NCBI GenBank assembly: GCA_046597455.1
Contig: JBKJKJ010000337.1
Span: 1 to 52,062, forward strand
Direction of reading: 5' to 3'
Length of the DNA stretch: 52,062 nt
Source: Burkholderiales bacterium
GTDB taxonomy: Bacteria > Pseudomonadota > Gammaproteobacteria > Burkholderiales > SG8-41
Numbering within the stretch: position 1 is the stretch's first letter; every line of letters starts with the position of its first letter. The notes below the pieces were generated by a model. It was not told the DNA's origin. It made no database searches and was given only the letters and a program-made list of their open reading frames with translations. Position numbers and translations under genes: made by a program. This document shows positions 2,618 to 27,333 of this stretch, piece by piece.

Positions 2618-3147
2618 GCACCGTGGCGCAAGCCGAACATCCGATGGCCGGCGCCTCGCAGGCGCCCGAGAGCGACGCGGGACCGCCCCCCTATGATGAA
2701 AGCATCGTTGAGGTTCTCGCGGCGAAAATTCTGATCGACTGGCTGCGAAATCGCCAGCAACTGCTCGTGCCGTTTACCATCGACCTGCAAAAGCTCGATG
2801 CGCAGCAGGGAAAGATACTGGTCCAGTCGATGCTCGCGGCCGCCCAAGCTGACGGCACGGTCGACGGTAATGAGCTCGAGCGTGTCGAGAGCGCGCTGCA
2901 GCACCTCAATGCGGGCGAAGCGCAGCGCGCGGCTCTACGCGAAATCCTCGAGCGTCAGCAGCCCCTCGCTGAGATCCTGGCGGCAGTTCGGGACGTGCAG
3001 ACCGGCTCACTCGTCTATGCGGCGTCCCTGCTCGCAGTCGACCGGCGCAAGCTGGTGAACCGGCAGTATTTGCGGTATCTCGCCGCGCGCCTGCAGCTAC
3101 CCAAAGATATCGCCCGCAGCCTCGAGCAGCGCTATCAGTTGAATTAA
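2614..3147 (+). CDS. TerB-like / DUF533-like protein
   Basis: ATGA start/stop overlap with the response regulator. 'MLAAAQADGTVDGNELERVESAL' resembles the TerB/DUF533 helical motif. GC3-rich codon usage. Confidence 0.55.
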   Translation: MSTVAQAEHPMAGASQAPESDAGPPPYDESIVEVLAAKILIDWLRNRQQLLVPFTIDLQKLDAQQGKILVQSMLAAAQADGTVDGNELERVESALQHLNAGEAQRAALREILERQQPLAEILAAVRDVQTGSLVYAASLLAVDRRKLVNRQYLRYLAARLQLPKDIARSLEQRYQLN

Positions 3148-3216
3148 CTCTCAGGGTTTGCGGCACTCATCACGCGAATAAAGGCGGTGAGGTCAGAACG
3201 GCGGGCGCGCCAACGT

Positions 3217-3690
3217 TCACGCCGACGTCTTTTCGGATCCCGCCTGCTCATCGCGCCCAACGCGATCGGTGATGCCACTCAACGCGGTCTGCACCACCTG
3301 GCTTTCAACCAGGAGGTGACGCGAGAGGTCCGACAGCGTGATCCAGCCCGTCACGCGCTGTGCATCGTCGAGAACGGGCAGCCGGCGCACGTTCTGGGAT
3401 GCCATGAGGTCCATCGCGATGCTCAGTGAGTCGTCAGGCCGGCAACTGAAAACCTGCTTCGTGGCCACCTGAATCACCGACGTGCGCCGCGGGTCCTTGC
3501 CTTCGGCGACAGCCCGATAGAGGATGTCGCGATCGGTGATGATCCCTTTGAGGTCTTCCGGCGTACCGACCGGCAGCGCGCTCACGTCGAGCTCGCCCAT
3601 CAGCGCCGCCGCCTCTTGCAAAGTGGCGTCCGGCTCGACGAACTCCACGGTCGTCGCCATCAGCTCTGCTACTTTCATCGCCTTCGACAT
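3217..3690 (-). CDS. CBS-domain pair protein
   Basis: Two CBS-like repeats ('VAELMATTVEFVEPDATLQEAAALMGELDVSALPV', 'LSIAMDLMASQNVRRLPVLDD'). AGGAG lies 6 nt upstream of the ATG at 3690. Confidence 0.85.
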   Translation of the reverse strand: MSKAMKVAELMATTVEFVEPDATLQEAAALMGELDVSALPVGTPEDLKGIITDRDILYRAVAEGKDPRRTSVIQVATKQVFSCRPDDSLSIAMDLMASQNVRRLPVLDDAQRVTGWITLSDLSRHLLVESQVVQTALSGITDRVGRDEQAGSEKTSA

Positions 3691-3742
3691 TTACCCACTC
3701 CTGTGCTTGACTTTGCGGCTGCTATTTACGGGATACGACGCA

Positions 3743-5527
3743 CTAGCGTGCTGCCAGCGGCCACACGGCCGCGATCAGGGGCACACCCGCAACGATGATG
3801 AATACCGACAGCGGCAAACCGAGCTTCCAGTAATCACTGAAGCGATAGCCGCCCGGCCCCATGACGAGGGTATTGCACTGGTGCCCGAAAGGCGTCAGGA
3901 AATCGCACGCAGCACCGAGCGCAACCGCCATGAGGAACGGGTCCGGATTCAATCCGAGGCGACTGGCCAGGCCTGCCCCGATAGGCGCGACCATCAGAAC
4001 GGTGGCAGCGTTGTTGAGAAACGGCGTCACCGCCATCGCAGCAATCAGCATCAGCGCGAGCGCACCGAGAGGCGGCAGCCCGCCGGCGGCCATGTGAAGC
4101 CAGCCCGCAATGAGATCGGTCGCACCCGTCGTGCGGACCGCTTCGCTCACCGGAATCAGCGCAGCGAGCAGAATGAGTATCGGCCATTCGATGCTTTCGT
4201 ACGCATCGCGCAGCGTGAGGGATTTCGTCACGACCAGCGCGACCGCGGCTGCGAAAAAGGCCACGGCGATGGGCAGCACTTTGAACACGACAGCCAGCAC
4301 CGCAACTGCCAGGATCAGGATCGGTATCCATCGACGCCGGTCGCGGCCCAGCCCCACATCCCGCGCGGCCAGCGGCAGGACGCCGAGCGTCTGCAGCGTG
4401 TCGGGCAACCGGTCGAAACGCCCCTGCAGCACGATCACGTCCCCCGCTCTGAAGCGAACCGAGCGCAGACGCTGCGTGATACGCTCGCCGCTGCGACTGA
4501 TCGCGAGCACGTTGGCATCGTAACGCTGACGCACGTCGAGCTCGATCAGGTTGGCGCCGATCAGGGGCGACTCACTTGTGATCACGCCTTCCACCACGCC
4601 CACGGTATCTCCATCCTCGTCCGCACCTGATTCGGCCGCCTTTCCACCGAGCACCAGGCCGCCGCGCGCGACAACTTTTTCCAGCGCGGCAGGCTCGCCT
4701 TCAAGCAGCAGCACGTCACCGGCATGCAGCTGCAGCGCGCGGGTCGGCTTGTAGCGCCTGAAGCGCTCGCGCACCACCGTGGTGAGCTTGACTTCACCCT
4801 CGCCCAGCGCCTCGAGATCCGCTGCCACTTTCCCAACGAGCTGGGATGTCTCGGCGATGGTCGCTTCGACGACGTAGTTCTCGATGTTGATCGCCGCGTC
4901 GATTGACACGCCGGCGCGACGGTCTTTCGGAAGTAACCGGTACGCGAAAGTGAGATAAATCATGCCAACGGCCGCAATACCGAGTCCGACCGGGGCATAG
5001 TCGAACATCTGGAAAGGCTTGCCGAGGATCTCTTCGCGCACGCGCGACACGATGATGTTGGGCGAGGTCCCGACCATGGTGATGAGGCCGCCCATGAGCG
5101 ATCCGAACGAAAGCGGCATGAGCAGCTGCGAAACCGGCGTGCCCGAGCGCTTTGCGAACTGCAGCGCAACGGGCAGCATGATCGCGAGCGCGCCGACGTT
5201 CTTGATGAACGTCGACAGCACAATGACCGCAAACACCAGAACGAAAACCTGTGCCTGGGTGGATTTGAGGTAAGGCGCCAGCGGCCTGATGAGAAGGTCG
5301 GTGACACCCGACTTCGCGACCGCAGCACTCACCACGAGTGCGGACGCAACGATGATCACGATATCGTCGCTGAAACCCGAAAAAGCCTCTTTCGCAGGAA
5401 CGATGCCGGCGAACACCGCCGCCAGCAGGGCGAGCAGCGCGACGACGTCATAGCGGACGCGGTCCCACACGAAAAGCGCCATCATCGCCCCGACGATGGC
5501 AAAGGTCAGTCCCTGGGGAAGCGTCAT
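3743..5527 (-). CDS. SLC13/DASS-type anion permease with central tandem TrkA-C (RCK_C) domains
   Basis: 594 aa. Hydrophobic N- and C-terminal halves flank a soluble insert ('EATIAETSQLVGKVAADLE...GDVLLLEG', 'VEGVITSESPLIGANLIELDVRQRY...GDVIVLQG'), the typical duplicated TrkA-C signature. Confidence 0.85.
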   Translation of the reverse strand: MTLPQGLTFAIVGAMMALFVWDRVRYDVVALLALLAAVFAGIVPAKEAFSGFSDDIVIIVASALVVSAAVAKSGVTDLLIRPLAPYLKSTQAQVFVLVFAVIVLSTFIKNVGALAIMLPVALQFAKRSGTPVSQLLMPLSFGSLMGGLITMVGTSPNIIVSRVREEILGKPFQMFDYAPVGLGIAAVGMIYLTFAYRLLPKDRRAGVSIDAAINIENYVVEATIAETSQLVGKVAADLEALGEGEVKLTTVVRERFRRYKPTRALQLHAGDVLLLEGEPAALEKVVARGGLVLGGKAAESGADEDGDTVGVVEGVITSESPLIGANLIELDVRQRYDANVLAISRSGERITQRLRSVRFRAGDVIVLQGRFDRLPDTLQTLGVLPLAARDVGLGRDRRRWIPILILAVAVLAVVFKVLPIAVAFFAAAVALVVTKSLTLRDAYESIEWPILILLAALIPVSEAVRTTGATDLIAGWLHMAAGGLPPLGALALMLIAAMAVTPFLNNAATVLMVAPIGAGLASRLGLNPDPFLMAVALGAACDFLTPFGHQCNTLVMGPGGYRFSDYWKLGLPLSVFIIVAGVPLIAAVWPLAAR

Positions 5528-5605
5528 CAGAATTGCCCGGTGCTCGAATGGAATCGAGCGACCCTAAGCAACCCTTATGCCGCACTGCCGCGGCTCGGCT
5601 GCGCC

Positions 5606-6274
5606 TTACCGGTTGGCGCGCGGGACCGTGACGCCGACCAGGGTGTCGCGCGTGAGGATCCCCGCCAGTTTTTCCTCCGACCAGCCTTCGGTTCCCTGCG
5701 GCCGCATCGGGACGACGACGTAGCGCATGTCGGCGTTGGAATCGTGCACGCGCAACGTCACGGTTTCAGGAAGCTCGGTGCCGAATTCCTTCAGCACCGC
5801 GCGCGGCTCGAACACCACACGCGAGCGGTAATTGCGGCTTTTGTACCAGGTCGGCGGCATGCCCAGTAACGCGCGCGGATAGCACGAGCAAAGCGTGCAC
5901 ACGATCGTGTTGTGGACGTCAGGCGTATTCTCGACGGCGATCAGGCGGTCTGCCTCGATGTCGATTCCCATTTCGGCGCACGCCGCCTTGCCGTCAGCCA
6001 GCAGGCGCGCTTTGAATTTGGGATCGCTCCAGGCTCGCGCGACCACCCTCGATCCGCGATAGGGAAACTCCTCGTCGAAGACCTCTATCCTGTGCCGCAC
6101 CTGCTCGGCGGTGATCACGCCTTTTTCTTCGAGCAGTTCCTGCATCGCACGGCTCATGATTTCATATTCGCCGGGCGGACCGTCGTCGTGCTCGTTGATC
6201 GGCGCGTGGTCATCGTGATGATGATCGCCATGATCGTGGGCGTGTGCAGCGCTATCGAATCTGGATGAGCTCAT
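5606..6274 (-). CDS. Nitrile hydratase alpha-subunit family protein, cobalt-type metal site, His-rich N-terminal extension
   Basis: Metal-binding motif 'VCTLCSCYP' (Thr/Tyr variant is the Co type). 'YKSRNYRSRVV' follows it. N-terminus is 'AAHAHDHGDHHHDDH'. ATGA overlap with the upstream gene. Confidence 0.9.
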   Translation of the reverse strand: MSSSRFDSAAHAHDHGDHHHDDHAPINEHDDGPPGEYEIMSRAMQELLEEKGVITAEQVRHRIEVFDEEFPYRGSRVVARAWSDPKFKARLLADGKAACAEMGIDIEADRLIAVENTPDVHNTIVCTLCSCYPRALLGMPPTWYKSRNYRSRVVFEPRAVLKEFGTELPETVTLRVHDSNADMRYVVVPMRPQGTEGWSEEKLAGILTRDTLVGVTVPRANR

Positions 6275-6660
6275 GTGGATTGCTCCGGGTTCGTGCCTCT
6301 GGAAGTCGAATCAGCAGACACAGGTTCGAGCCAGTGCTCGAAAATTTCCATTTCGAGCAGGTCGCGCTCGGGCCCGCGGTAATCGGCCCAGATCTGCTTT
6401 TGACTGAAACGCACGCGATAAAGCACTTTTGCAGGCTGGCCGTCGAAGCCGTAAGCGAGTTCCTCGGGATTGGGGAAAACGCCGCAGACGCGCTCGATCA
6501 CCCCGGATTTGCCGCGGATGTAGCACGGCGTGCGCCGGTGCCCCGGCGGGAAAATGCGCTTCACGCGGACCGTATCGCCGACGTCGAACCGGCGTCCCGG
6601 CGCAGGCGTATACGTCGAAGGCAGCGGCGCGCGCCCGCTGTCGGGCTCACCTGCGCTCAT
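6271..6660 (-). CDS. Nitrile hydratase beta-subunit, C-terminal-half homolog, encoded as a separate polypeptide
   Basis: 'FDVGDTVRVKRIFPPGHRRTPCYIRGKSGVIERV...LYRVRFSQKQIW...EIFEHWLEP' matches the SH3-like C-terminal half of NHase beta. ATGA overlaps on both sides. Confidence 0.85.
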   Translation of the reverse strand: MSAGEPDSGRAPLPSTYTPAPGRRFDVGDTVRVKRIFPPGHRRTPCYIRGKSGVIERVCGVFPNPEELAYGFDGQPAKVLYRVRFSQKQIWADYRGPERDLLEMEIFEHWLEPVSADSTSRGTNPEQST

Positions 6661-7016
6661 GTGGTCGCCTTTTGCTTGATCGGCGAAGTGCTTTCATCGG
6701 GTACGTTGAACCGCGAGCGCACCTCCCGCATTTTCTGTTCGAGCCCCGCTTCGGTGATGAGGCCTTTTTCGAGCAGGACGGCGCGCAGCGCCGAAGTGGT
6801 GATTTCGAAGTACTGGAGCTGCGCATACCGGTCGCCCAGATCCTCGGCCGCGCGGCGCAGCTCATCGGTCCGTACGATCCCGTTACGCTGCAAGACCGAT
6901 CGCAGCCCGTTCGCCTGGCGCTCCCAGAACTTCATGCCATGATCGAGGGTGTCCACCGGACCGCTTGCTTCGCCGCCGATATCCTGCGGCCCCTGGTTAG
7001 GATATTTTTCGCTCAC
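6657..7016 (-). CDS. Nitrile hydratase beta-subunit, N-terminal-half homolog, encoded as a separate polypeptide
   Basis: 'PQDIGGEASGPVD...FWERQANGL...DELRRAAEDL...YFEITTSALRAVLLEKGLIT' matches the NHase beta N-terminus (HDxGG motif). I chose the GTG at 7016 because GAGGA lies 7 nt upstream and codons between 7017 and 7127 are GC3-poor. The ATG at 7127 (track) is an alternative. Confidence 0.75.
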   Translation of the reverse strand: MSEKYPNQGPQDIGGEASGPVDTLDHGMKFWERQANGLRSVLQRNGIVRTDELRRAAEDLGDRYAQLQYFEITTSALRAVLLEKGLITEAGLEQKMREVRSRFNVPDESTSPIKQKATT

Positions 7017-7314
7017 GTTCGTGTCCTCGCATTGCGGTCTGTCACCTGGACCTGCGAAGAGAACTTGCCAGTGAACACCAGCGAAGTCAAACTCGCCCGA
7101 CGACAACCGCATGAAAGGGATCCGCATGCAGGGTTACCCCGCCGCTTCCTGGGTAGGGCGTTGATGGCGTTACCCGTTTGGGGGAGCTTCAGCCAGGCCG
7201 TCAACCCGACGCCCTACAGGAAGCTGCCGTTCGATACTGAGATTCCGTTCTGGACCAAGGTCGTGCGCGAGTCCGGCGCGACCGCCGACTGAAAGCCCGA
7301 ACCTGGAGCCCGCA

Positions 7315-8277
7315 ATGAAGCTGTCGCAATCGCTTGCCCTCTGGGTGTGCGCCCTCGCGTCTCCCGCGCTCGCTCAGCACACGCCCCAATACCCTAATCG
7401 TCCGTTGCGCCTGATCATCCCGATGGCAGCCGGCGGCGCGACCGATATCGTGATCCGCACGATCACACCGCGCATGTCGGAGCTCCTCGGCCAGCAGGTG
7501 ATCGTGGACAATCGGCCCGGCGCCAACGGGATCGTCGGCGACGAGATGGTCGTCAAGGCCGCGCCGGACGGCTATACCCTGCACGCCAACTCGCTCGCGA
7601 TCGCGATCAACCCAAGCCTGTACAAGCTCAACTACGATATCCTGCGCGACCTGACGCCCATTACCCAGCTTGCAGCGGTCGATCTGGTGCTCGGCGTCTA
7701 CCCCCAGCTTCCCGTGAAGTCGGTGCGCGACCTGATCGCGCTCGCCAAAGCTCAGCCGGGCAAGCTCAACTACGCCTCGTTCGGCGTCGGCAGCATCGCA
7801 CACATCGCCGGCGAAATGTTCAAGCAGGCAACACAGACCCAGGTTTTGCATGTCGCTTACAAGGCGAGCCCGCTCGCGGTGCAGGAAACCGTAGCCGGAC
7901 AGACCCAGTTTCTTTTCGGCGGCGCGTCATACATGTTGCCGCAGGTGCGCGCCGGGCGCCTGATAGCCGTGGGGGTCGCATCCCTCAAACGCACCCCGCT
8001 TGCGCCCGAAATTCCCACCCTCGATGAATCGGGCGTTCCCGGGTTCGACGTCACGGCGTGGTTCGGAATGTGGATGCCGCCCAGAACGCCCAAACCCATC
8101 GCCATGCGTATACACGACGTCGCGGTCAGGTCGTTGCGGGAGATGCGCCCGGGAATCGAAAAGCTCGGTTACCGCCCCGGCGGCGAATCGCCCGAAGAAT
8201 TCGCGAAGTTCGTGCGCGCCGAAGTCGAGAAGTTCGCCCGCGTCGTCAGGAATGCGGGAATCAAACCCGAAGGTTGA
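7315..8277 (+). CDS. Bug/TctC-family tripartite tricarboxylate transporter substrate-binding protein
   Basis: Signal peptide followed by 'YPNRPLRLIIPMAAGGATD...VDNRPGANG...APDGYTL...YASFGVGS..H', the Bug family signature. GGAG upstream of the ATG. Confidence 0.93.
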   Translation: MKLSQSLALWVCALASPALAQHTPQYPNRPLRLIIPMAAGGATDIVIRTITPRMSELLGQQVIVDNRPGANGIVGDEMVVKAAPDGYTLHANSLAIAINPSLYKLNYDILRDLTPITQLAAVDLVLGVYPQLPVKSVRDLIALAKAQPGKLNYASFGVGSIAHIAGEMFKQATQTQVLHVAYKASPLAVQETVAGQTQFLFGGASYMLPQVRAGRLIAVGVASLKRTPLAPEIPTLDESGVPGFDVTAWFGMWMPPRTPKPIAMRIHDVAVRSLREMRPGIEKLGYRPGGESPEEFAKFVRAEVEKFARVVRNAGIKPEG

Positions 8278-9271: not shown

Positions 9272-10240
9272 TCAGTCGAGCTTGAGCTTCGCCGCAGCGA
9301 TCGTCTTCTTCCACTGCTCGTACTCGGCACGCATGAACTGGGCGAGCATTTCGGGGGTGCCGGGCGCCGGTTCCGCGCCTTCGCGCAGCAGCCTCTGGGC
9401 GACGTCCTTGTCCTGGAGGCTGCGAACGATTTCGGCGTTGAGCTTGGTCACGACCTCTTTCGGGGTGGCGGCAGGCGCAAAAATGCCGTACCAGGTCACG
9501 TAACCGAACCCGGGGACACCTGCTTCGGCCACCGTCGGAATTTCCGGCGCGGCAGCCGAGCGCTTCGCGCTGCTGACCGCAATCCCTCGCAACCGGCCGC
9601 TGCGGACGTGAGGCAGCACCGAAGGCATGCTGTTGAACATCAGCGAAACCTGCCCGCCGAGCAGATCCGTGACCGCAGGCGCGGTGCCCTTGTAAGGGAT
9701 ATGGACAAGATCGATACCGGCCGCGGCTTTGAGCATTTCCATCCCCAGATGCTGCGGGCTTCCCGGGCCCACCGAGGCATAGTTGATCTGTCCTGGTCTG
9801 GATTTGGCGAATTTGATGAGCTCGCGCACCGAGGTGACCGGAAGCGAAGGATGCAGCACCATGATCTGCGGATTGATCACGACAAGGCTGATCGGCGCCA
9901 GATCGGTGAAAACGTTGTACGGCAGCTTGGTCCCGACCGCCGGAGTAACCGACATGCTGCCGCCCGTCGCGAACAGCAGCGTGTAGCCGTCGGGTGCGGC
10001 GCGCACCACGTTCTCCACGCCGACGATGCCGCCTGCGCCCGGGCGATTGTCGATGATGACCTGCGGGCCCCACGCCTCGGTCAGCTTCTGGCCGATCATG
10101 CGGGCCACCAGATCGGTCGGACCGCCAGGCGGAAAGTGAACCACCATGCGAATCGCTTTGGCCGGGTAGGTTTGTGCATGCGCCGGGACACCGAATATCC
10201 CCGCTGCCGCAACCAGGCAGGGCAATAACGCTCTCTTCAT
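9272..10240 (-). CDS. Bug/TctC-family substrate-binding protein
   Basis: 'MKRALLPCLVAAAGIFGVPAHAQTYPAKAIRMVVHFPPGGPTD...IDNRPGAGG'. GGAGA lies 5 nt upstream of the ATG at 10240. The 528-aa track ORF is an over-extension. Confidence 0.92.
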   Translation of the reverse strand: MKRALLPCLVAAAGIFGVPAHAQTYPAKAIRMVVHFPPGGPTDLVARMIGQKLTEAWGPQVIIDNRPGAGGIVGVENVVRAAPDGYTLLFATGGSMSVTPAVGTKLPYNVFTDLAPISLVVINPQIMVLHPSLPVTSVRELIKFAKSRPGQINYASVGPGSPQHLGMEMLKAAAGIDLVHIPYKGTAPAVTDLLGGQVSLMFNSMPSVLPHVRSGRLRGIAVSSAKRSAAAPEIPTVAEAGVPGFGYVTWYGIFAPAATPKEVVTKLNAEIVRSLQDKDVAQRLLREGAEPAPGTPEMLAQFMRAEYEQWKKTIAAAKLKLD

Positions 10241-10498
10241 TACCGTCTCCTCATGTGTTCTTTGGTCGAGCCTTCCGAATGACTTCGAGCTCGATATTTG
10301 CGTGCGGGCGTGGCCGATATTATAAGGGCCGCGCAAACTCCAGCGCGCGCACTGACTGTCGGAGCTCGACACGCCGCTTTTCGCTGCGCGCTTCGCGGGC
10401 GCGAACGGTGCCCGACAAGGCGCCGCTGACGCAGCGCAGTGAAAGGCTCGGGTAAGAAACGGCGGCGACAATGACTCACGCCATACGGCTGTCGCCCC

Positions 10499-11137
10499 GT
10501 GCCCCGACCAGACCCTATCCTGATCGATCCTTCGCCCCGACTCGCCCTCGCCGCTACGCTCCTCGGCTGCCTGATGTTCGTCGGTCTCGCCACGGCCTCG
10601 GACGCGATTCTTCGAGCGCTGTCCGGAGAAGACGGAATCGTGGAGATCACTTCGGCGCTCGCCTATCCCGTGGGCGCGTTCTTCGCGCTGCGGCTCGCGA
10701 GGCATTCGCATGGGTGGGGGCGTGCCCACTGGATCATGTGGGTGGGCTTGTGCATATTGTTCTTCGGGGAGGAGACGAGCTGGCTGCAGCATGTAATCGG
10801 CTACACGACCCCAGACGCGATGAAGGCCGTCAACGCCCAGTCCGAATTCAACCTGCACAATCTGAACATCGTCACTGTCGACGGGGCGCTCATCGGCAAC
10901 GACGGCACCCTGACGTTCAAAGTCTGGCGGGATTCCCAGGTGCTCTTCTACCTGGGATTCACCACCTACTTTCTGCTGCTGCCGCTCGCCAGATCACTTC
11001 GATTCGTCGATGACATGGCGCAACGTCTTGCCGTTCCAGCGCTGAGCCGGCGCTTTCTGCTGATGGTCTGGATCCCGATTGCCGTGAGCGTCGCTTTCAC
11101 GTTCCTGGATCGGCACGAGCTTCTGCGAAAAAAATGA
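10499..11137 (+). CDS. Integral membrane protein, unknown function
   Basis: Several hydrophobic segments and a 'FFGEETSWLQH' motif. GTG start, so the start is uncertain. Confidence 0.5.
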   Translation: MPRPDPILIDPSPRLALAATLLGCLMFVGLATASDAILRALSGEDGIVEITSALAYPVGAFFALRLARHSHGWGRAHWIMWVGLCILFFGEETSWLQHVIGYTTPDAMKAVNAQSEFNLHNLNIVTVDGALIGNDGTLTFKVWRDSQVLFYLGFTTYFLLLPLARSLRFVDDMAQRLAVPALSRRFLLMVWIPIAVSVAFTFLDRHELLRKK

Positions 11138-11285: not shown

Positions 11286-12458
11286 TCAGAACGCGTACTC
11301 GGGCCCTTCGACATACTTGAAGCGCTCGAGTGCGTCGCTACGCAGGGTGTAGCCGAGGCCCGGCCGATCCGGCGCGTGCACCGAGCCATCGGGACGTACG
11401 TCGAAAGGCTCATTGAAAAGCTCGTACATCATGGGCATGTAGCCCTGGCTGACTTCGAGTATGTGACAGTTGGCCGCAGCCATCGCGACATGAATGCTGG
11501 CCGCGAACAGGATGCCGCTTCCCCAGGCGTGCGGCGCGAGCCGTATGTCGCGGGCCGAGGTGAGCGCTGCGATACGGCGGATTTCGGTGAAGCCGCCCGC
11601 GCGCGCGACGTCGGGCTGGGCGATGTCGATCGCGTTGTTCTGAAGCAGACTCTGAAAACCGTAGCGCGTGAATTCGCGCTCGCCTGACGCAATCGGAATG
11701 GTCGTGGCGCGCCGGACTTCCGCTTGGCCGGCATGATTCTCGGGGGACACCGGCTCTTCGAACCAGGCGATGTCGTAGCTCTCGAGCGCTCGGGCCAGCC
11801 TGATCGCGACGGGCACTTCCAGGGAGCCGTGGGCATCGACCATCAGCTCCACGCCGGGCCCGATCCCGCGCCTTGCCGCCTCCACGCGCCTCACGCATTT
11901 TTCGATCGAGAACCCGTCGCGCCCGACGACGCGCATTTTCACGGCCGAGAACCCTTTCGCCGCATAGCCGCCCAACTCGGCTTCGGCTTCGTCCCCCGGC
12001 GCCCAGCCGCCGCTGGCATAACCACGAACGTGACTTCGCACCGCGCCCAGAGCCTGATAGACGGGAATACCGAGCGCCTGCGCTTTCACATCCCAGATCG
12101 CGATGTCGATTCCCGCAATCGCCTCCATCACCATGCCGCTACGGCGGCTCACTTCGGGCTGCGGGACCCCGCGCTCGAGCGCCGGCTGGGCGCGCGAGCC
12201 GTTGTACATTTTTTCGTAAATGCGTTCGGAGAACAGCGGGTCTTCGCCGACCACCTCAGGCGCCAGCTCGTGCTCGACGATAGCCGAAACGACGGGCGGG
12301 CTGCCGAGTGCTGCGCCGATGCCCGTCAGCCCGCTGTCGGTCTCCACTAGAATGAGCGTCGCGTCGCTTTTGACTTTCGTTCCAAGGTCGGTGCGATGCT
12401 GGCGCTTCAGCGGTACCGGGTCGGACATCGGGATGGCACGTACGCGAACGATCTTCAC
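11286..12458 (-). CDS. Mandelate racemase/muconate lactonizing enzyme family protein (enolase superfamily)
   Basis: N-terminal capping domain ('LILVETDSGLTGIGA'). Barrel motifs 'FSAVKMRVG', 'LMVDAHGS', 'WFEEP', 'IASGE', 'DIAQPD'. Confidence 0.9.
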   Translation of the reverse strand: MKIVRVRAIPMSDPVPLKRQHRTDLGTKVKSDATLILVETDSGLTGIGAALGSPPVVSAIVEHELAPEVVGEDPLFSERIYEKMYNGSRAQPALERGVPQPEVSRRSGMVMEAIAGIDIAIWDVKAQALGIPVYQALGAVRSHVRGYASGGWAPGDEAEAELGGYAAKGFSAVKMRVVGRDGFSIEKCVRRVEAARRGIGPGVELMVDAHGSLEVPVAIRLARALESYDIAWFEEPVSPENHAGQAEVRRATTIPIASGEREFTRYGFQSLLQNNAIDIAQPDVARAGGFTEIRRIAALTSARDIRLAPHAWGSGILFAASIHVAMAAANCHILEVSQGYMPMMYELFNEPFDVRPDGSVHAPDRPGLGYTLRSDALERFKYVEGPEYAF

Positions 12459-14167: not shown

Positions 14168-15889
14168 ATGACTTCAGCGCAGAACGATCGTTCCCGCGAA
14201 TCCGGGCCGTGGCATCCGGGTATCGAATCCCCGGTACCTCTCCGGCTGCGGCACCTGTGCACGATCTTCCGCCCGGAGAATGTCTACACCGTTTTCGACG
14301 AAGCCCGTGAGTTGCGCGGCGTGACCGGCCTCGATTACCCCGACCTGGTGGCTTTCCGCCCCGAGCGTCTCGCGCTGCACGAGCTTCTGATTCGCGTGAG
14401 CGCCGATTTCTCCGTCCCCGACGGCTCGCGCATCGAAGATCTCGGGATCAACTTCCGCCGCATCGCAGGCGACATCCTCCGGCGGGACGTCGAACCCCGG
14501 CGCGCCGCGATCGCATCATGCTATGACGACTGCCGGCACGCACTCGCGGAACTCATCGACGCGGAGTTGGCCGGCCTCTTCCCAGCGTTACACGCCGCGG
14601 GCGGCGCGGCGGGAATCGTGGACGCGTGGGAAGCGCGCGCGATCTCGGAGACCGCCCCCATGCGCCGAAGCGCCTGCCGCGCCCTCGCGAAAGTCGTTTC
14701 CGCCATCCTCGTGCGTCATGGCCGCATCTGGGGCACACCCGACCTGACTGCAGCCATCGCGGTCACCCTCGCGTGCAACGAGTTCGCCAGCGACGAGATC
14801 GGCCGCACGATCGAGCCGTGGGTGATGCATTCCGTCGCCGAAGGGCGCTACACCCTGCTCCCCCGCCAGGAGAAACCCGTGGTCATGAACACCAAGGGTG
14901 CATCCGCTTCGGGGAAGAGCACGCTCAGGCCGCTTCAGAAGAGGCTCGCGGGCGACATCGGGACGCGCTGGAGCGAGTTCGCGCTGATCAGTCCCGATAT
15001 CTGGCGCAAACAATTACTGGATTATGAAGCCCTCGGTCCAGCCTACAAGTACGCCGGGGCTTTCACCGGAGACGAGTTGCAGATCGTGGATCAGAAGCTC
15101 GATCACTACATGGCACGCAAGGCGGAGCGCGGGGATATGTCGCATCTGCTGATCGACCGCTTCCGCTTCGACAGCTTCGCGCCCGACTCCGATGTCGCCG
15201 GCAGCAATCTGCTGACCCGCTTCGGACAGATCGTGTATCTGTTCTTCATGATCACGCCACCGGGCTCGCTCGTCGAGCGCGCGTGGAGCCGCGGCCTCGA
15301 CGTGGGCCGCTACAAGGCCGTCGACGATACGCTTGCGCACAGCGTCGAAGCGTACTCGGGCATGCCCCAGCTTTTTTTCACGTGGGTCCAGCGCCGCGAC
15401 AAGCGGGTGCATTTCGAATTCCTCGACAATACCGTGCCGCTGGGCGAGCGTCCGCGCACCGTCGCGTTCGGATGGAATGAAACCATGACCGTGCTCGACG
15501 TGAAGTGCCTGCTCGATGTCGAGCGCTACCGCAGGGTCGACACCAGCGCGACCTCGCCGGACGCACTCTTCCGCGATCGAGGCCTGCTGGCTGCGGCTAA
15601 CAACACCGGTTTTCTGCGCGAGTGCGTCGAGCGCATTCGAGAGGTGAATTTCGCAGAGCAGGCCTCCGGGCGCGTTTACCTGCGACTGGTGTCAGGCGCG
15701 CCCGTGTGGGTCGATGAGAAAGGGCTTGCCCGGGCGGCGGCGGATCCCGACACGCGTGCGGGCCTCATGGCAACGGCCCCCGCCGTGTTCTCGGGCGAGC
15801 TTGCCGGGATCGGCGGGGTGAACTTTCCCCTGGACCTGGTTTCAACTGAAGGCCTGCACACCGTCGGCCGCTGGGCCTCGGATGCCTAG
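14168..15889 (+). CDS. P-loop NTPase/kinase-like protein (zeta-toxin/AAA_33-like core) with a roughly 270-aa N-terminal region of unknown function
   Basis: Walker A 'GASASGKST' and Walker B-like 'HLLIDRFRFD'. Long GC3-rich ORF. Start is uncertain: ATG 14168 versus GTG 14081, with no clear SD for either. Confidence 0.7.
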   Translation: MTSAQNDRSRESGPWHPGIESPVPLRLRHLCTIFRPENVYTVFDEARELRGVTGLDYPDLVAFRPERLALHELLIRVSADFSVPDGSRIEDLGINFRRIAGDILRRDVEPRRAAIASCYDDCRHALAELIDAELAGLFPALHAAGGAAGIVDAWEARAISETAPMRRSACRALAKVVSAILVRHGRIWGTPDLTAAIAVTLACNEFASDEIGRTIEPWVMHSVAEGRYTLLPRQEKPVVMNTKGASASGKSTLRPLQKRLAGDIGTRWSEFALISPDIWRKQLLDYEALGPAYKYAGAFTGDELQIVDQKLDHYMARKAERGDMSHLLIDRFRFDSFAPDSDVAGSNLLTRFGQIVYLFFMITPPGSLVERAWSRGLDVGRYKAVDDTLAHSVEAYSGMPQLFFTWVQRRDKRVHFEFLDNTVPLGERPRTVAFGWNETMTVLDVKCLLDVERYRRVDTSATSPDALFRDRGLLAAANNTGFLRECVERIREVNFAEQASGRVYLRLVSGAPVWVDEKGLARAAADPDTRAGLMATAPAVFSGELAGIGGVNFPLDLVSTEGLHTVGRWASDA

Positions 15890-15950
15890 CGGGTATGAGA
15901 TGATTCCGGTCGCTGGAAAAGCCGGTTGCACAATCAGAGGAGAACAATAC

Positions 15951-16919
15951 ATGTTACGTTTGTTGGCGATATGCCTGCTGGGCGCGGTCGCACCCTGGGC
16001 GGGCGCGCAGGGAGATTACCCGTCCAAACCCATTCAGATGGTCGTGCCTTTCCCGCCGGGCGGCGTGGCCGACATCACCGGCCGGCCGACCGCGCTGGTG
16101 ATGAGCAAGCTGCTCAAGCAGCCGATCGTGATCGTGAACAAATCCGGCGCCGGAGGCGCCATAGGCATGGCGACCGTCGCGAAAGGCCGCTCGGACGGCT
16201 ACACGATGCTGATGGCGCTGTCGTCGATTTCGGTGATACCGGTCGCCGAGCGCCTGCAGGGACGCACGCCGCCCTACGAGTTGAAGGAACTCACGCCGAT
16301 CGCGCTCATCAGCTCGGATCCGACGGTGCTCGTGGTGCGCGCCGACGGCCCGTACAAAACCATCAAGGATTTTGTCGCCGCTGCCAAAGCGCAGCCGGGC
16401 AAGATCAATTACGCCTCGTCAGGCGTTTACGGCACGCTTCACGTCGCGATGGAAATCTTCGCGCACGCGGCCGGCGTGGCGCTCTTCCACATCCCTTATC
16501 AGGGTGGAGGGCCAGCCGTAGCGGCGCTGCTCGGCGGGCAGGTCGAAGCGCTCGCTTCCGGTCCCGCTGCGGCGATCTCCCAGATCAAAGGCGGCAAAAT
16601 GCGCGCGCTCGCGGTGTGGGGCGACAAACGCCTCGCTTCACTTCCTGAGGTGCCGAGCATGAAAGAGCTCGGCTACAACGCCGAGTTCTATATCTGGTCC
16701 GGATTGTTCGTGCCGGCGGCGACACCTGCGCCGATCAGGCAGAAACTGCGCGACACCGTTCGCCAGACGGTGAGCGATCCCGAGTTCAAGGACGCGATGG
16801 CGAAAATCGAGACGCCAATTGCCTATCTCGACGCACCGGAATTCCAGAAATTTCTGGACCGCGACGCGAAGCGCCTCGAGAGCGCCGTCATGCGCATGGG
16901 CAAGGTCGAACAGAAGTAA
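15951..16919 (+). CDS. Bug/TctC-family substrate-binding protein
   Basis: 'MLRLLAICLLGAVAPWAGAQGDYPSKPIQMVVPFPPGGVAD'. AGAGGAGAA upstream of the ATG at 15951. Confidence 0.92.
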   Translation: MLRLLAICLLGAVAPWAGAQGDYPSKPIQMVVPFPPGGVADITGRPTALVMSKLLKQPIVIVNKSGAGGAIGMATVAKGRSDGYTMLMALSSISVIPVAERLQGRTPPYELKELTPIALISSDPTVLVVRADGPYKTIKDFVAAAKAQPGKINYASSGVYGTLHVAMEIFAHAAGVALFHIPYQGGGPAVAALLGGQVEALASGPAAAISQIKGGKMRALAVWGDKRLASLPEVPSMKELGYNAEFYIWSGLFVPAATPAPIRQKLRDTVRQTVSDPEFKDAMAKIETPIAYLDAPEFQKFLDRDAKRLESAVMRMGKVEQK

Positions 16920-21200: not shown

Positions 21201-22322
21201 TCACGTCCTGACGCGGCGCTCGAAGCGCTTGACGGCGTCCGGATCGAGCTCGACGCCGATGCCCGGCGTTGTGGGCACCGCGATGACACCGGCTTCGGGT
21301 TGCGGCAGCGGCCGGTCCAGGATCGCGTGCAAAGGATTGTGGATATACATGTGCTCGAACGTCAGAAGGCCGGGCGTGGCCGCCGCAAAATGCAGCGAGG
21401 CCGCGATGCAGATCGGCCCTGAGGCGCCAGTGTGCGGCGCGACCGCGACGTTATAAGCGCCCGCGAAAGTTGCGATTCGGCGGCAACCGGTGAAACCCCC
21501 GGCGCGCGCGATGTCGGGCTGCACGACGTCGAGCAAACCTTCTTCCATAAACGGACGGAAGCCTGCGACCGTGAACTCACCTTCACCGGCCGCCAGCCGC
21601 ACGTTCCTGATCGCACTTCGTATCCGGCGATAGCCCGAAAGGTCATCAGGAACGACGGGCTCCTCGAGCCAGAACATGCCCAGCGTTTCAGCGTGCAGGC
21701 CGACCGCGATCGCTGTGGGCGCATCGTAGCCGCTGTTCGCGTCGAGCATCACATCGATGTCCGCGCCCACGGCTTTGCGCACGGCATCCATGCGCGCGAT
21801 ATCGGCGCCGCGTCCGCCACCGACTTTCATCTTGATCGCGGTATAGCCGTCCGCGGCCAGCCGCTCGGCCTCGCCGGCCATGATCGCAGGCGTGTCGAGC
21901 AGGATGGACGACGCATATGCGGGAACCTCTTTGCGCCCGTGACCGGCGAGAAGGCGCGAGACCGGCATTCCGAGCTTCTTGCCGAGCAGATCCCACAGCG
22001 CGATGTCGATCCCGCTGATGGCCTCGAGCAGATAGCCGCGCGAGTGCCCGCGCGCGCGCATCGTGCGATACATGTCGTCCCAGATGCCTTCGATATCGAA
22101 GCCGTCGCGCCCGATCACGACCGGCGCCAATACTTCCTCGATCACGGCGCGGGTGGCGCCCGGCCCCAGTCTCACGATGCACTCGCCCAGCCCCGTCAGC
22201 CCTTCATCGGAGTGAACCCGCACGACCGTCGCGAGCAGCGACTTGAGCTCAAAGGTGGCGATCCTCCACGGCTTGTCGAGCGGTGCTTCGAGCTCGAGCA
22301 CTTCGATGCGGGTGATTTTCAT
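21201..22322 (-). CDS. Mandelate racemase/muconate lactonizing enzyme family protein (enolase superfamily)
   Basis: 'MKITRIEVLELEAPL..', 'YTAIKMKVGG', 'VMLDANSGY', 'WLEEP', 'LAAGE', 'DVVQPD'. The track ORF to 22634 is over-extended. Confidence 0.9.
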   Translation of the reverse strand: MKITRIEVLELEAPLDKPWRIATFELKSLLATVVRVHSDEGLTGLGECIVRLGPGATRAVIEEVLAPVVIGRDGFDIEGIWDDMYRTMRARGHSRGYLLEAISGIDIALWDLLGKKLGMPVSRLLAGHGRKEVPAYASSILLDTPAIMAGEAERLAADGYTAIKMKVGGGRGADIARMDAVRKAVGADIDVMLDANSGYDAPTAIAVGLHAETLGMFWLEEPVVPDDLSGYRRIRSAIRNVRLAAGEGEFTVAGFRPFMEEGLLDVVQPDIARAGGFTGCRRIATFAGAYNVAVAPHTGASGPICIAASLHFAAATPGLLTFEHMYIHNPLHAILDRPLPQPEAGVIAVPTTPGIGVELDPDAVKRFERRVRT

Positions 22323-22336
22323 TGCGGCGCCCGGAC

Positions 22337-23485
22337 TCAACGCACGACTTGCCAGGCCCCGTCGCTGCCGGGATAGACGGCGCCGTATTTGCGAACCGCT
22401 TCGGCGTCGAAGTTCCAGCCGAGGCCCGGCGTCTGCGGCAACAGCAGGTCTCCGTCCTTCGCGACGAGTTGACGGTCGATCAGGCGGCGGAAATTCACGA
22501 TGTGGTCGTCGGGCATGAATTCCACGTGACGCGCATTGGGCGCCGATGCGGCCAGATGCACGTGCACATCGTGCCAGGCGTGAGGCGAGACGGTCACGCC
22601 GTAGCTCGCCGCGGTCGCAGCCACGCGCCGCCATTCGGAGACCCCGCCGCAGACCGTCGCGTCGGTCTGAAGGATCTCGGCGGCCTGTTTCTCGAGCATT
22701 TCCCTGAAGCGCCAGCGCCCCGCCTCGATTTCCCCGGTCGCCACGGTCACGCTGGTGCGTTGCGCGAGCTTCGCATGATTGTCGATGTCATCCGGAGAAA
22801 ACGGCTCCTCGATCCAGTACGGATCGTACGGTTCGAAGCGGTTCATGTAGCGCAGCGCAGTCGGCAGGTCGTGCCATGCGTTGTTGGCGTCGAGCATCAG
22901 CAGCACGTCGGGGCCGATCGCCTCCCGCGCGGCGCGAATGCGGTCCTCTTCCTCGCGCGGAGAGAGCCGGCCCGTTTTCATTTTCACGGCCTTGAAACCA
23001 TCCTTGACGTAACCCGCGAGCTCTTCGCCGAGTTTTTGAGGCGTCTTCCCCGGCAGGTAGTAACCGCCGCTCGCATACGCAGGCACGCGATCATCGACGA
23101 CCGCGCCGAGGTAGCGATACAGCGGCAGCTTCGCGGTGCGGGCGTTGAGGTCCCAGATCGCAATATCGATCGCGGACAGCGCGCGCATGACTGCACCCAC
23201 GCGTCCCTGCAACAGCGCTTCTGCATACATCTCCTGCCACAGCCCTTCGACGCGCAGAGATTCCTGACCGACCACGCGCGCACCGAGGAGATCGGTCACT
23301 GCAACCGCAAGCAGGCGCCCCGACGTGTTGACCGCGTAGCAGTATCCGATGCCTTCCACGCCGTCGACCGAGCGCACTTTCACCAGGCAGTATTCGCGCG
23401 CGGTGACGGTGCGGGTGGAGAACGTCACCGCGTTGTCGAGCGGAACGCGGGCGATGCAGACTGAAACCGATTCGATGCGGGCCAT
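22337..23485 (-). CDS. Mandelate racemase/muconate lactonizing enzyme family protein (enolase superfamily)
   Basis: 'FKAVKMKTG', 'LMLDANNAW', 'WIEEP', 'VATGE', 'ILQTD'. Ends 14 nt before the next gene. Confidence 0.9.
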   Translation of the reverse strand: MARIESVSVCIARVPLDNAVTFSTRTVTAREYCLVKVRSVDGVEGIGYCYAVNTSGRLLAVAVTDLLGARVVGQESLRVEGLWQEMYAEALLQGRVGAVMRALSAIDIAIWDLNARTAKLPLYRYLGAVVDDRVPAYASGGYYLPGKTPQKLGEELAGYVKDGFKAVKMKTGRLSPREEEDRIRAAREAIGPDVLLMLDANNAWHDLPTALRYMNRFEPYDPYWIEEPFSPDDIDNHAKLAQRTSVTVATGEIEAGRWRFREMLEKQAAEILQTDATVCGGVSEWRRVAATAASYGVTVSPHAWHDVHVHLAASAPNARHVEFMPDDHIVNFRRLIDRQLVAKDGDLLLPQTPGLGWNFDAEAVRKYGAVYPGSDGAWQVVR

Positions 23486-23495
23486 GATGATTTCC

Positions 23496-24473
23496 TTACT
23501 CGGGTTTGATGCCGGCCTGTTTGGCCACGGCGTTCCATTTCTTCAGGTCCTCGCGCATGAGCTTGCCCAGCTCTTCCGCAGTGCCTGCAAGCGGGTCGCC
23601 ACCTTGCTGGATGATGCGATCGCGCATTTTTTCCGTGGAGAGGATACGCGTGATCTCACCATTGAGCTTCGCCACGACGTTCTTCGGCGTCTTCGCCGGC
23701 GCGAGCACCCCGAACCACACCACCGACTCGAAACCCGGCAGGCCTGCTTCAGCGAGCGTCGGCACGTCAGGCAGCACGGCCGCGCGCTTGTTCGATGTCA
23801 CGCCGAAGGTTTTCACCTTGCCCGCTTTCAGTTGGGGCAAGCCTTGCACCGTGGTGATGAACGTCACCGCCGCAGCACCCGCGATCGTGTCGATCAGGGC
23901 CGGAACGCCGCCTTTGTACGGGACATGCACCATCTGTATGCCTGCCATGCGGTTGAGGAGCTCGTTCGACAGATGCTGGATCGAGCCCTGGCCAGGCGTT
24001 GCGTAATTGAGCTGGCCCGGTTTCGATTTCACCAGCGCGATGAATTCTTTCAGGTTTGCCGCCGGCACACCGAGATTGGCGAGCAGCATGAAAGGCGAGC
24101 TCGCAACGAGCGAGACTGGCGCGAAATCGCCGATCGCGTCATAGGGGATCTTCGCGTAAACACTGGGCGCGATCACGTGATTCGGTATCGCCATCAGGAT
24201 CGTGTGTCCGTCGGGAACGGCCTTGGCAGTCGCTTCGGCGGCGAGCATGCCTGCGGCACCGCCGCGATTGTCGATGATCACCGACTGTCCAAACGCGCTG
24301 GTCAGCGGCGCGGCGAGATCGCGTGCGAGTATGTCGACACTGCCGCCCGGTACGAAACCCACGAGAAACCGGATGGGTTTGGTGGGATAGTTCTGCGCAA
24401 GCGCAGTGGAAGCCACGAAAGCGAACAGGGCGCCGGCGGCGGCGCCTGTCACGCGATTGAAAGTGCGGTTCAT
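23496..24473 (-). CDS. Bug/TctC-family substrate-binding protein
   Basis: 'ALAQNYPTKPIRFLVGFVPGGSVD...IDNRGGAAG...VPDGHTIL'. First gene of the Bug/MR/MR/dehydrogenase operon. Confidence 0.92.
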   Translation of the reverse strand: MNRTFNRVTGAAAGALFAFVASTALAQNYPTKPIRFLVGFVPGGSVDILARDLAAPLTSAFGQSVIIDNRGGAAGMLAAEATAKAVPDGHTILMAIPNHVIAPSVYAKIPYDAIGDFAPVSLVASSPFMLLANLGVPAANLKEFIALVKSKPGQLNYATPGQGSIQHLSNELLNRMAGIQMVHVPYKGGVPALIDTIAGAAAVTFITTVQGLPQLKAGKVKTFGVTSNKRAAVLPDVPTLAEAGLPGFESVVWFGVLAPAKTPKNVVAKLNGEITRILSTEKMRDRIIQQGGDPLAGTAEELGKLMREDLKKWNAVAKQAGIKPE

Positions 24474-26235: not shown

Positions 26236-26364
26236 GCGGTTTGTCTTCGTAAGAAGTTGTCAGGTTATCATACAAGTTGTCGATCGCAGAAGTCGCCGTC
26301 GGAAACGCGACCGTGCGCCCAATTTTCACGGCAGAATGATTCAAACAACACCGGGGAGAACCAC

Positions 26365-27333
26365 ATGAGGGCAATGCTTCGAGCGCTGGTCGCAGGCGTC
26401 CTGATCATCGGGAGCGCGGCGGCGCAGGCGCAAAACTATCCGACGCGACCCGTCAGAATCGTCGTCGGCTCGACCGCCGGAGGCGGAACCGACATCATCG
26501 CGCGGCTGATCGGAGAGAAGCTTGCCGACGCGTTCAAACAGCCTTTCATCGTCGAGAACCGGCCGGGCGCATCGACGACCATCGCCGGCGCGGTGGCGGC
26601 AAAAGCCACGCCCGACGGCCACACGCTCCTCATCGGCACGAGTACGGTGCGCGCCGTGGCACCGCACCTGATGAAAGTCGGCTATGACGCGAACCGGGAT
26701 TTCGCGGCCGTCGCCTTACTGGTGACGGTTCCCAACGTCCTGATCGCGAATAGCGCGCTTGCGGTGAAGGACGTGCGCGACCTGGTGGCATTGATACGCG
26801 CCAAACCCGACCAGTTCACCATGGGCAATGCCGGCACGGGCACCGTGCAGCATCTCTCGGGTGAAGCTTTCAAGCAGCGCATCGGAATCAAGACCGTGAA
26901 CGTGCCGTACAAAGGCAGCGCGCCGGCGCTCACCGATCTGGTCGCGGGGCATATCCAGTTCGCGTTCGACACGACGTCCTCCTCGATGGGGCAGATCAGA
27001 AGCGGGCGCGTGCGGGCGCTCGCCATCACCAGCGCCAGGCGTGCACCCGAGCTGCCCGACGTGCCGACGATGGCCGAAGCGGGCTACCCCAATTTCGAAT
27101 TCGCGACGTGGTACGGGATGTGGAGCACGGGCGGCACGCCGGCCGCGATCGTCACCCGGCTTCACGACGAGACGATGCGCGCGCTCAAACTGCCCGACGT
27201 GCAGCAGCGCCTGTCTGCGCTCGGCGGCGAGCTCGGCGCTTCGAGTATCGAGCAATTCTCGACGTTCACGCGCGCTGAGTACGAGCGCTATGGCAAGCTC
27301 GTGCGCGATGCCGGAATCAAGGTATCGCAATGA
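26365..27333 (+). CDS. Bug/TctC-family substrate-binding protein
   Basis: 'MRAMLRALVAGVLIIGSAAAQAQNYPTRPVRIVVGSTAGGGTD'. GGGGAGAA upstream of the ATG at 26365. Confidence 0.92.
   Translation: MRAMLRALVAGVLIIGSAAAQAQNYPTRPVRIVVGSTAGGGTDIIARLIGEKLADAFKQPFIVENRPGASTTIAGAVAAKATPDGHTLLIGTSTVRAVAPHLMKVGYDANRDFAAVALLVTVPNVLIANSALAVKDVRDLVALIRAKPDQFTMGNAGTGTVQHLSGEAFKQRIGIKTVNVPYKGSAPALTDLVAGHIQFAFDTTSSSMGQIRSGRVRALAITSARRAPELPDVPTMAEAGYPNFEFATWYGMWSTGGTPAAIVTRLHDETMRALKLPDVQQRLSALGGELGASSIEQFSTFTRAEYERYGKLVRDAGIKVSQ

Follow-up and report, generated by a model that had tools for sequence, protein, structure and literature searches.

Nitrile hydratases (NHases) are industrial biocatalysts whose heterologous expression is made harder by the matching activator that they require. 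In Streptomyces canus CGMCC 13662, Guo et al. 2020 (PMC7329996) described an NHase (ScNHase) encoded in the gene order anhD-anhE-anhA, in which AnhD is the N-terminal and AnhE the C-terminal piece of the beta subunit, and found no activator gene in the S. canus genome. ScNHase is a cobalt (Co)-type (AnhD-AnhE-AnhA)2 enzyme that hydrates acetamiprid and thiacloprid; under reducing conditions cobalt goes directly into the apo-enzyme, and the AnhD2A complex serves as a metal and self-subunit-swapping chaperone (PMC7329996), an account restated in a 2026 review. Here we analyzed a three-gene locus at positions 5606-7016 of contig JBKJKJ010000337.1 from a Burkholderiales bacterium (the whole 52,062-nucleotide stretch is referred to as the window). 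The locus encodes, with high confidence, a split-beta Co-type enzyme of the NHase family. It is likely a heterotrimeric (alpha/betaN/betaC) Co-type NHase of a large split-beta clade, predicted to be matured with its own betaN.

The three genes lie on the minus strand in one operon-like block, as seen in the map of open reading frames (ORFs) and by reading of the sequence. The block and its main elements are as follows:

6657..7016, minus strand: betaN, N-terminal half of NHase beta; 119 amino acids (aa), GTG start; Pfam NHase_beta_N (PF21006, 3.9e-12)
6271..6660, minus strand: betaC, C-terminal (SH3-like) half of NHase beta; 129 aa; Pfam NHase_beta_C (PF02211, 7.3e-22)
5606..6274, minus strand: alpha, catalytic Co-type NHase subunit; 222 aa; Pfam NHase_alpha (PF02979, 7.3e-80)
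7024..7028, minus strand: Shine-Dalgarno-like GAGGA, 7-11 nt upstream of the betaN GTG, read from the sequence
5873..5902, minus strand: metal-binding claw of alpha, V-C126-T-L-C129-S130-C131-Y-P-R134 (VCTLCSCYPR; VCTLCSCY is residues 125-132)
6182..6250, minus strand: His/Asp-rich N-terminal tail of alpha, residues 9-31, AHAHDHGDHHHDDHAPINEHDDG, read from the sequence

A preliminary description of this DNA had read the block as three ATGA-coupled ORFs for betaN, betaC and alpha, and both the overlaps and the Pfam domains bear this out: each ATG overlaps the stop of the gene before it, betaN for betaC and betaC for alpha (plus-strand tcat at 6657-6660 and 6271-6274). The motifs that it quoted are present, namely VCTLCSCYPR and the run AAHAHDHGDHHHDDHAP (residues 9-25) in alpha and PPGHRRTPCYIRGKSG in betaC. 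Its Co-type assignment also holds, with the claw in place and alpha above the cut-off of the NCBIfam NHase-alpha equivalog TIGR01323 (262 vs 249.85 bits); the best PDB matches of alpha are Co-type NHase alphas. The single beta polypeptide of ~210-230 aa that is usual in Co-type NHase is replaced here by ORFs of 119 and 129 aa. Against the NHase-beta model TIGR03888 (cut-off 152.2) these halves score 31.6 and 71.6 bits, each covering one end of the model, with betaC aligned to positions 137-226.

The longest ORF for betaN spans 7127..6657 (156 aa), and the homologue-backed GTG at 7016 is most likely its true start. The longest betaN ORF is exactly 119 aa in the related loci L008, L012, L014, L018, L021 and L033, and the alignment begins at residue 38 of the window ORF. 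In the extension ahead of this start (7017-7127), the G+C content at third codon positions (GC3) is down at the genomic background, 0.65 as against 0.75. The 156-aa product, which would mimic the N-terminal extension of ScnB from thiocyanate hydrolase (SCNase), was rejected on the grounds of the 119-aa orthologues, the ribosome-binding site and GC3, all of which favor GTG 7016. With this start, betaN would lack the 43-residue N-terminal extension of SCNase beta.

The split of beta is kept across relatives. More than 8000 alpha homologues are found in the database, and the best 120 (77-87 % identity), all named 'nitrile hydratase subunit alpha', come from metagenomes or from metagenome-assembled genomes (MAGs) of Burkholderiales/Betaproteobacteria. 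The lineage is one of uncultured bacteria from soil and groundwater. The related loci (n = 86) comprise 6 contigs encoding two close homologues and 80 loci of species-representative genomes, all 80 of them MAGs; alpha identity to the window is 71-86 % in the betaproteobacterial loci and 55-65 % in the alpha- and gammaproteobacterial ones. The order betaN-betaC-alpha is kept in the six contigs and the 80 genome loci, and by BLAST with all ORFs of the 86 loci, separate betaN and betaC genes stand upstream of alpha wherever the contig is long enough, and nearly all of the 86 have all three genes. Between betaN and betaC, 43 loci show an overlap of 4 nt and others a gap of 2 or 4 nt or an overlap of 1 nt, and ATGA and GTGA forms both occur among the lineages. 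A filter-free search of 1.84 billion cluster representatives with betaN returned 411 matches. Among the best 150 of these, 127 are 140 aa or shorter, 6 are betaN-alpha fusions and none is an ordinary fused beta. Free-standing betaN proteins form hundreds of clusters at 50 % identity.

An activator gene was missing throughout. A tblastn search of the window with seven accessory proteins, a COG0523-type GTPase, four NiCoT transporters, CbtA/B and HupE gave no match; with the same queries against the 86 loci, the only accessory-protein matches were weak and lay inside betaN genes. HupE adjoins the three-gene cluster in five of the 86 loci:

L012, L017, L026, L028 and L034 (betaproteobacterial), within ~2.5 kb upstream of betaN: HupE/UreJ-type Ni/Co transporter ORFs

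In these sequences, a hidden Markov model (HMM) of the seven accessory proteins matched 81 betaN ORFs and that of the window; its only other matches were weak ones to N-terminal helices of alphas. The preliminary description had reported no activator beside the locus; since the searches of the window and of the 86 loci revealed no accessory gene, its absence is a trait of the whole split clade. When betaN was compared with accessory-protein profiles using hhalign, the match was 97.8 % (E 7e-13, 72 columns), and by this profile similarity the free-standing betaN is an accessory-protein homologue. This homology, taken with the lack of an accessory gene, fits the ScNHase model. Given its reported role in ScNHase, betaN would be the better-supported stand-in for the activator, ahead of the His-rich tail of alpha; for the window locus itself, a chaperone step by betaN is put forward by analogy, at slightly less than even chances.

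Other forms of betaN were seen among the relatives. Single ORFs of ~320-350 aa join betaN directly to alpha (Pfam NHase_beta_N plus NHase_alpha) and represent a third architecture. In alphaproteobacterial relatives, a second betaN paralogue of ~103 aa, with the RR motif kept, lies just upstream of betaN; in hhalign it matches betaN at 99.7 % and the accessory proteins at 73 %, and it could be a dedicated chaperone copy.

L043:2027-3055, L060:4548-5597 and L072:7521-8570, and also P0154, P0176, P0194, P0195, P0235 and P0267: betaN-alpha fusion ORFs
L050:3182-3493, L051:7021-7332, L054:4783-5097, L055:7024-7335 and L058:1703-2017: second betaN paralogue
L064:5451-5765, L065:6933-7274, L071:7021-7335 and L080:6808-7239: second betaN paralogue, further loci

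To place the locus among characterized families, we collected cultured comparators from tblastn searches against plasmids and 18 annotated regions. An annotated accessory protein accompanies 7 of the 9 fused-beta operons (Klebsiella, two Rhodococcus, Halalkalicoccus, Stutzerimonas, Sulfitobacter and Caballeronia); no accessory gene is listed for the Ensifer and Thioclava operons, in a plasmid gene table that is incomplete. None of the 6 cultured split operons carries an accessory gene in the annotated regions inspected. The split layout is betaN-betaC-alpha in Streptomyces sp. NBC_01176 and Planktothrix, and betaC-alpha-betaN in Burkholderia sp. PAMC 26561, R. leguminosarum, Microvirga terrae and Polymorphobacter. 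Cobalt transporters (NiCoT or CbtAB) are neighbors of 5 of the 6, the exception being Planktothrix. In an alignment of 100 alphas, CSCYPR was present without exception in every split-beta enzyme and in both SCNase gammas, and CSCYPW or CSCYPF in every fused-beta enzyme. A neighbor-joining tree (72 alphas, 205 columns, 100 bootstraps) separated the split and SCNase alphas from the fused-beta and alpha-only alphas (77/100), recovered the window clade (at least 70 % identity; 98/100) and nested the two SCNases, grouped with 100 % support, among the split enzymes. By alignment and tree, alpha is a member of the split-beta, 'CSCYPR' clade and lies outside the two-subunit NHases, in line with the separate placement proposed in the preliminary description. 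These associations suggest a possible annotation rule, in which a split beta is paired with CSCYPR and the lack of an accessory gene, and a fused beta with CSCYPW and usually an accessory gene. The association of split beta, CSCYPR and accessory gene could also guide the study of cobalt-site maturation.

Residues of the active site are retained in both beta halves. The invariant betaN columns in our alignment (A1) are D12, G14, G15, E52, R54, R55, E58 and Y69. In betaC, which carries the PPGHRRTPCYIRGKSG motif, R43 of GH-R42-R43-TP-x-Y (GHRRTPCY) matches the conserved Arg of NHase beta HTRFPRY in alignments with PDB sequences (Bacillus/Geobacillus). In established NHase structures, two conserved beta arginines and one tyrosine hold the oxidized cysteines and act in catalysis; the conserved beta arginines are represented here by betaN R54 and betaC R43, and the tyrosine by betaN Y69. 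R134 of alpha occupies the position of SCNase gammaArg136, as checked against T. thioparus SCNase gamma (PDB 2dd4_C), and of a Trp in Pseudonocardia thermophila NHase (PtNHase). Wild-type PtNHase has CSCYPW; in the PDB search, chain 3vyh_A, identical except for CSCYPR and presumably a Trp-to-Arg mutant of PtNHase, scored higher against the window alpha. Around this site the window clade differs from the Streptomyces/Rhizobium/Burkholderia split enzymes at three positions:

betaN residue 53: Leu in the window clade, Lys in those enzymes
betaN residue 73: Thr in the window clade, Trp in those enzymes
alpha residue 135 (nt 5870-5872): Ala in the window clade, Pro in those enzymes

betaN L53 corresponds to SCNase betaArg90, and R54 to SCNase betaArg91 (equivalent to NHase betaArg52). 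Alpha 135, directly after the pocket Arg, is A, T, F, W, D, M or P depending on the subclade, which points to diversified substrates; in the fused-beta alphas inspected (n = 11) this position is Pro in 8 and Ser in 3.

Taken at the level of mechanism, betaN and betaC would rebuild the ordinary beta fold around alpha and give an (alpha-betaN-betaC)2 enzyme. Co(III) would be held by three cysteines and two backbone amides, with C129 and C131 oxidized to sulfinate and sulfenate, and the enzyme would convert nitrile to amide; nitrile hydration is, on the family match, the probable activity. Maturation would proceed without a dedicated activator because betaN, as an NhlE/P14K homologue, would fill that role: the free-standing protein may form an alpha-betaN2-type intermediate and act as a metal and self-subunit-swapping chaperone, as AnhD does in S. 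canus. The His/Asp tail would at most aid cobalt capture. Several observations weigh against this reading. A cobalt transporter stands beside most cultured split operons and none is present in the window. The alpha tree is a neighbor-joining tree on 205 columns whose key node has just 77 % support. An AlphaFold2 model of alpha, computed with 29 close homologues, has a mean predicted local distance difference test score of 51.8, too poor to assess tail disorder or the pocket. The pocket Arg is common to SCNase, which makes a substrate that is anionic, or not a nitrile, possible. A single laboratory is the source of the ScNHase chaperone model, which was worked out in vitro with dithiothreitol, and what ties the window to ScNHase is gene order, genus and a homologue in Streptomyces sp. 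NBC_01176 (56 % alpha identity).

A broader interpretation is that a split beta and an Arg in place of the pocket Trp are the marks of a single ancient and very large branch of the NHase family, independent of activators and including SCNase, in which the freed betaN is the maturation chaperone, and that the window clade of uncultured Burkholderiales, with its distinctive pocket (L53, T73, A135), has a natural substrate so far unconnected with any NHase. We regard this as tentative and, as a whole, rather doubtful.

The surrounding window is a Burkholderiales-like chromosome segment of 64 % GC with two-component regulators. Directly downstream of alpha, Pfam and NCBIfam assign a permease and a CBS-domain gene that travels with it:

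3743..5527, minus strand: CitMHS/DASS-type anion permease with two TrkA_C domains (Pfam, NCBIfam), 78 nt downstream of alpha
3217..3690, minus strand: stand-alone CBS-pair protein (Pfam)

A terminator scan of the gap between alpha and the permease found no convincing terminator-like site, and the permease is possibly co-transcribed with alpha. Orthologues of the permease-CBS pair adjoin the NHase in L010, lie 5.6 kb away in L028 (where the CBS orthologue, 79 % identical, is next to the permease) and are absent elsewhere. This patchy placement was taken as local synteny. A functional link between permease and NHase is doubtful, and the pair was rejected as functional NHase partners because the adjacency is not kept among relatives. 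An Rfam scan of positions 3000-8000, covering riboswitches such as cobalamin, returned nothing, as did a scan for sigma-70 promoters, and no amidase, cobalt transporter or deazapurine genes were found among the window genes scanned. Other features of the window include:

11286-12458, 21201-22634 and 22337-23485, minus strand: three mandelate-racemase/enolase-superfamily genes
7315-8277, 9272-10858, 15882-16919, 23496-24473, 26257-27333 and 41466-42470: six Bug/TctC solute-binding genes
42509-44827, plus strand: second CitMHS/DASS-type permease, fused to an N-terminal cyclic-nucleotide-binding domain

Typical of Burkholderiales, the enolase-superfamily and TctC set suggests that genes for the catabolism of acid sugars or carboxylates surround the NHase. 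A sister subclade encodes a conserved protein of ~389 aa directly downstream of alpha (L001:8711-9868, L023:8688-9857 and eight other betaproteobacterial loci), and a divergent CBS gene lies upstream. The ~389-aa protein is absent from the window and has no Pfam or NCBIfam match apart from a weak one to M28 peptidase (E 0.0086); it could process the amide product.

Four alternative explanations were weighed. That the two halves come from one beta gene that is frameshifted or decaying, whether by assembly error or as a pseudogene, is a general possibility for any metagenome contig. We consider its probability negligible here: the split is kept in ~80 independent assemblies, free-standing betaN prevails in the nearest 150 clusters, both halves retain their invariant residues, and the junctions vary by lineage (ATGA, GTGA, short gaps), which rules out a sequencing frameshift as the cause. 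The preliminary description was thus right to treat the split as genuine. It had also suggested that alpha, through its His-rich N-terminus, could have a built-in module for cobalt delivery that stands in for the activator, and this is unlikely. Such stretches are classic metal-binding segments, and composition is kept in other split enzymes and in all 120 close alpha homologues, which have 5-11 His among their first 30-43 residues; HD repeats differ in number, and a conserved HAPxNEHD closes the tail, a pattern that suggests selection for composition. An activator-less NHase of Monosiga likewise has a (His)17 linker (review PMC7193024). Similar tails are, however, found where the operon encodes an accessory protein (Klebsiella, with MSHKHDHDH, Sulfitobacter and Halalkalicoccus); P. 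putida NHase alpha has HTHDHHHD, and SCNase gamma begins with the similar MSADHDHDHDHDHDHK. Deletion of the Monosiga His17 stretch reportedly did not abolish cobalt loading. Presence of the tail is therefore uncorrelated with absence of an activator, whereas free betaN does correlate with it. Help in cobalt capture is plausible, and replacement of the activator by the tail, judged from these comparisons, is unlikely.

Some of the evidence is shared with an SCNase-like enzyme, or one for another small anionic or pseudohalide cyano compound, in which R134 would bind the charge and the adjacent DASS permease would import the substrate. SCNase of Thiobacillus thioparus (ScnB-ScnA-ScnC, PDB 2dd4) has a split beta and an equal gene order, and its gamma resembles the window alpha in VCTLCSCYPR, the pocket Arg, the His/Asp-rich N-terminus and the shared tree clade in which the SCNase gammas are nested; the anion permease follows alpha with no terminator-like site between. 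The gene order is matched by the window, though it is not exclusive to SCNase. GammaArg136 and betaArg90 are said to set the thiocyanate selectivity of SCNase, and the betaArg90 position is Leu53 here. The window alpha falls below the cut-off of the SCNase-gamma model TIGR03887 (225 vs 291.45 bits; a true scnC scores 357), lacks the ~10-residue insertion of SCNase gamma and matches NHase alphas (205-209 bits) more closely than it does SCNase gamma (176 bits); betaN is without the ScnB extension, and the window is without the P15K-type activator that SCNase has. Arg is found in all split enzymes inspected, including the Streptomyces one with the ScNHase gene order, and therefore tracks the split and not thiocyanate. 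The permease-CBS pair is 5.6 kb off in one relative and absent in others. We judge this explanation improbable. A toyocamycin-type NHase (ToyJKL) acting on 7-cyano-7-deazapurines also has three subunits (cited in PMC7329996), yet queC, queD and queE are missing among the window genes scanned, and the alpha of a deazapurine cluster is a stand-alone one with CSCYPT, placed outside the split clade, so that this explanation is very improbable. That lone alpha, at L104:2456-3127 on an R. leguminosarum plasmid, lies in a cluster with queC/queD/queE and an IMP-dehydrogenase-like gene and is a candidate ToyJ-like deazapurine nitrile hydratase in a rhizobium. The heterotrimeric split-beta Co-type NHase matured with its own betaN is thus our preferred reading.

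Compared with known systems, the two-subunit Co-type NHases (Pseudonocardia thermophila, Rhodococcus L-/H-NHase, Pseudomonas putida) share with the window the claw and the beta Arg/Tyr residues, and their alphas are ~50 % identical to the window alpha, which passes the NHase-alpha equivalog. They differ in having one beta polypeptide, CSCYPW, a separate branch of the alpha tree and an NhlE/NhhG/P14K-type accessory gene in 7 of the 9 operons inspected. CnhA of Ensifer adhaerens, considered as a possible three-subunit NHase, was dropped as a comparator because its paper gives an ordinary alpha-beta-activator cluster. On a plasmid of Azospirillum ramasamyi (L090:2533-4175), a true scnC (TIGR03887, 357 bits) follows one beta-like gene of 283 aa that covers the entire NHase-beta model, that is, an SCNase-type enzyme with unsplit beta; it adjoins HupE/UreJ and TauE genes.

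The permuted betaC-alpha-betaN enzymes of Burkholderia sp. PAMC 26561 (L087), Rhizobium leguminosarum (L089), Microvirga terrae (L097) and Polymorphobacter (L098) share the split beta, CSCYPR, a His-rich alpha N-terminus and the lack of an accessory gene (alpha identity 55-57 %), and differ from the window in gene order, in an adjoining NiCoT/CbtAB transporter and in K and W in betaN. NCBI names both of their beta halves 'SH3-like domain-containing protein'. Burkholderia betaC, unlike that of the window, carries a twin-arginine translocation (Tat)-like signal (SRRSWLKALAASGAAVAMG), which hints at export.

The closest counterparts are the ScNHase/Streptomyces clusters, which like the window have the order betaN-betaC-alpha, the Co-type CTLCSC and no accessory gene. 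The alpha of Streptomyces sp. NBC_01176, a type carried by many Streptomyces species, also has CSCYPR and a His-rich N-terminus with HGDH..H and HAPI.E, and its NCBIfam pattern is that of the window (267 and 231 bits against the NHase-alpha and SCNase-gamma models). Identity between the two is 56 % for alpha, 38 % for betaN and 49 % for betaC, and both alphas fall in the split clade of the tree. The window differs in L53, T73 and A135 (vs K, W and P), in the lack of a neighboring NiCoT transporter or aquaporin and in its host, an uncultured Burkholderiales-type bacterium. Of the distinct split-NHase lineage claimed in the preliminary description, the separation from SCNase and from ToyJ-like enzymes stands. 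The layout is not new, having been described for ScNHase (PMC7329996), and the view of it as essentially new is contradicted by its annotation in many cultured Streptomyces and in Planktothrix, with the permuted form in Rhizobium, Burkholderia, Microvirga and Polymorphobacter. The large and diverse natural pool of activator-free three-gene enzymes could yield easily expressed catalysts and new substrate ranges; what the window locus adds is modest because the architecture and activator-free maturation were already described for ScNHase. The activator-less betaN-betaC-alpha kind is thus already known from that enzyme, and the window is a proteobacterial, uncultured-lineage addition to it.

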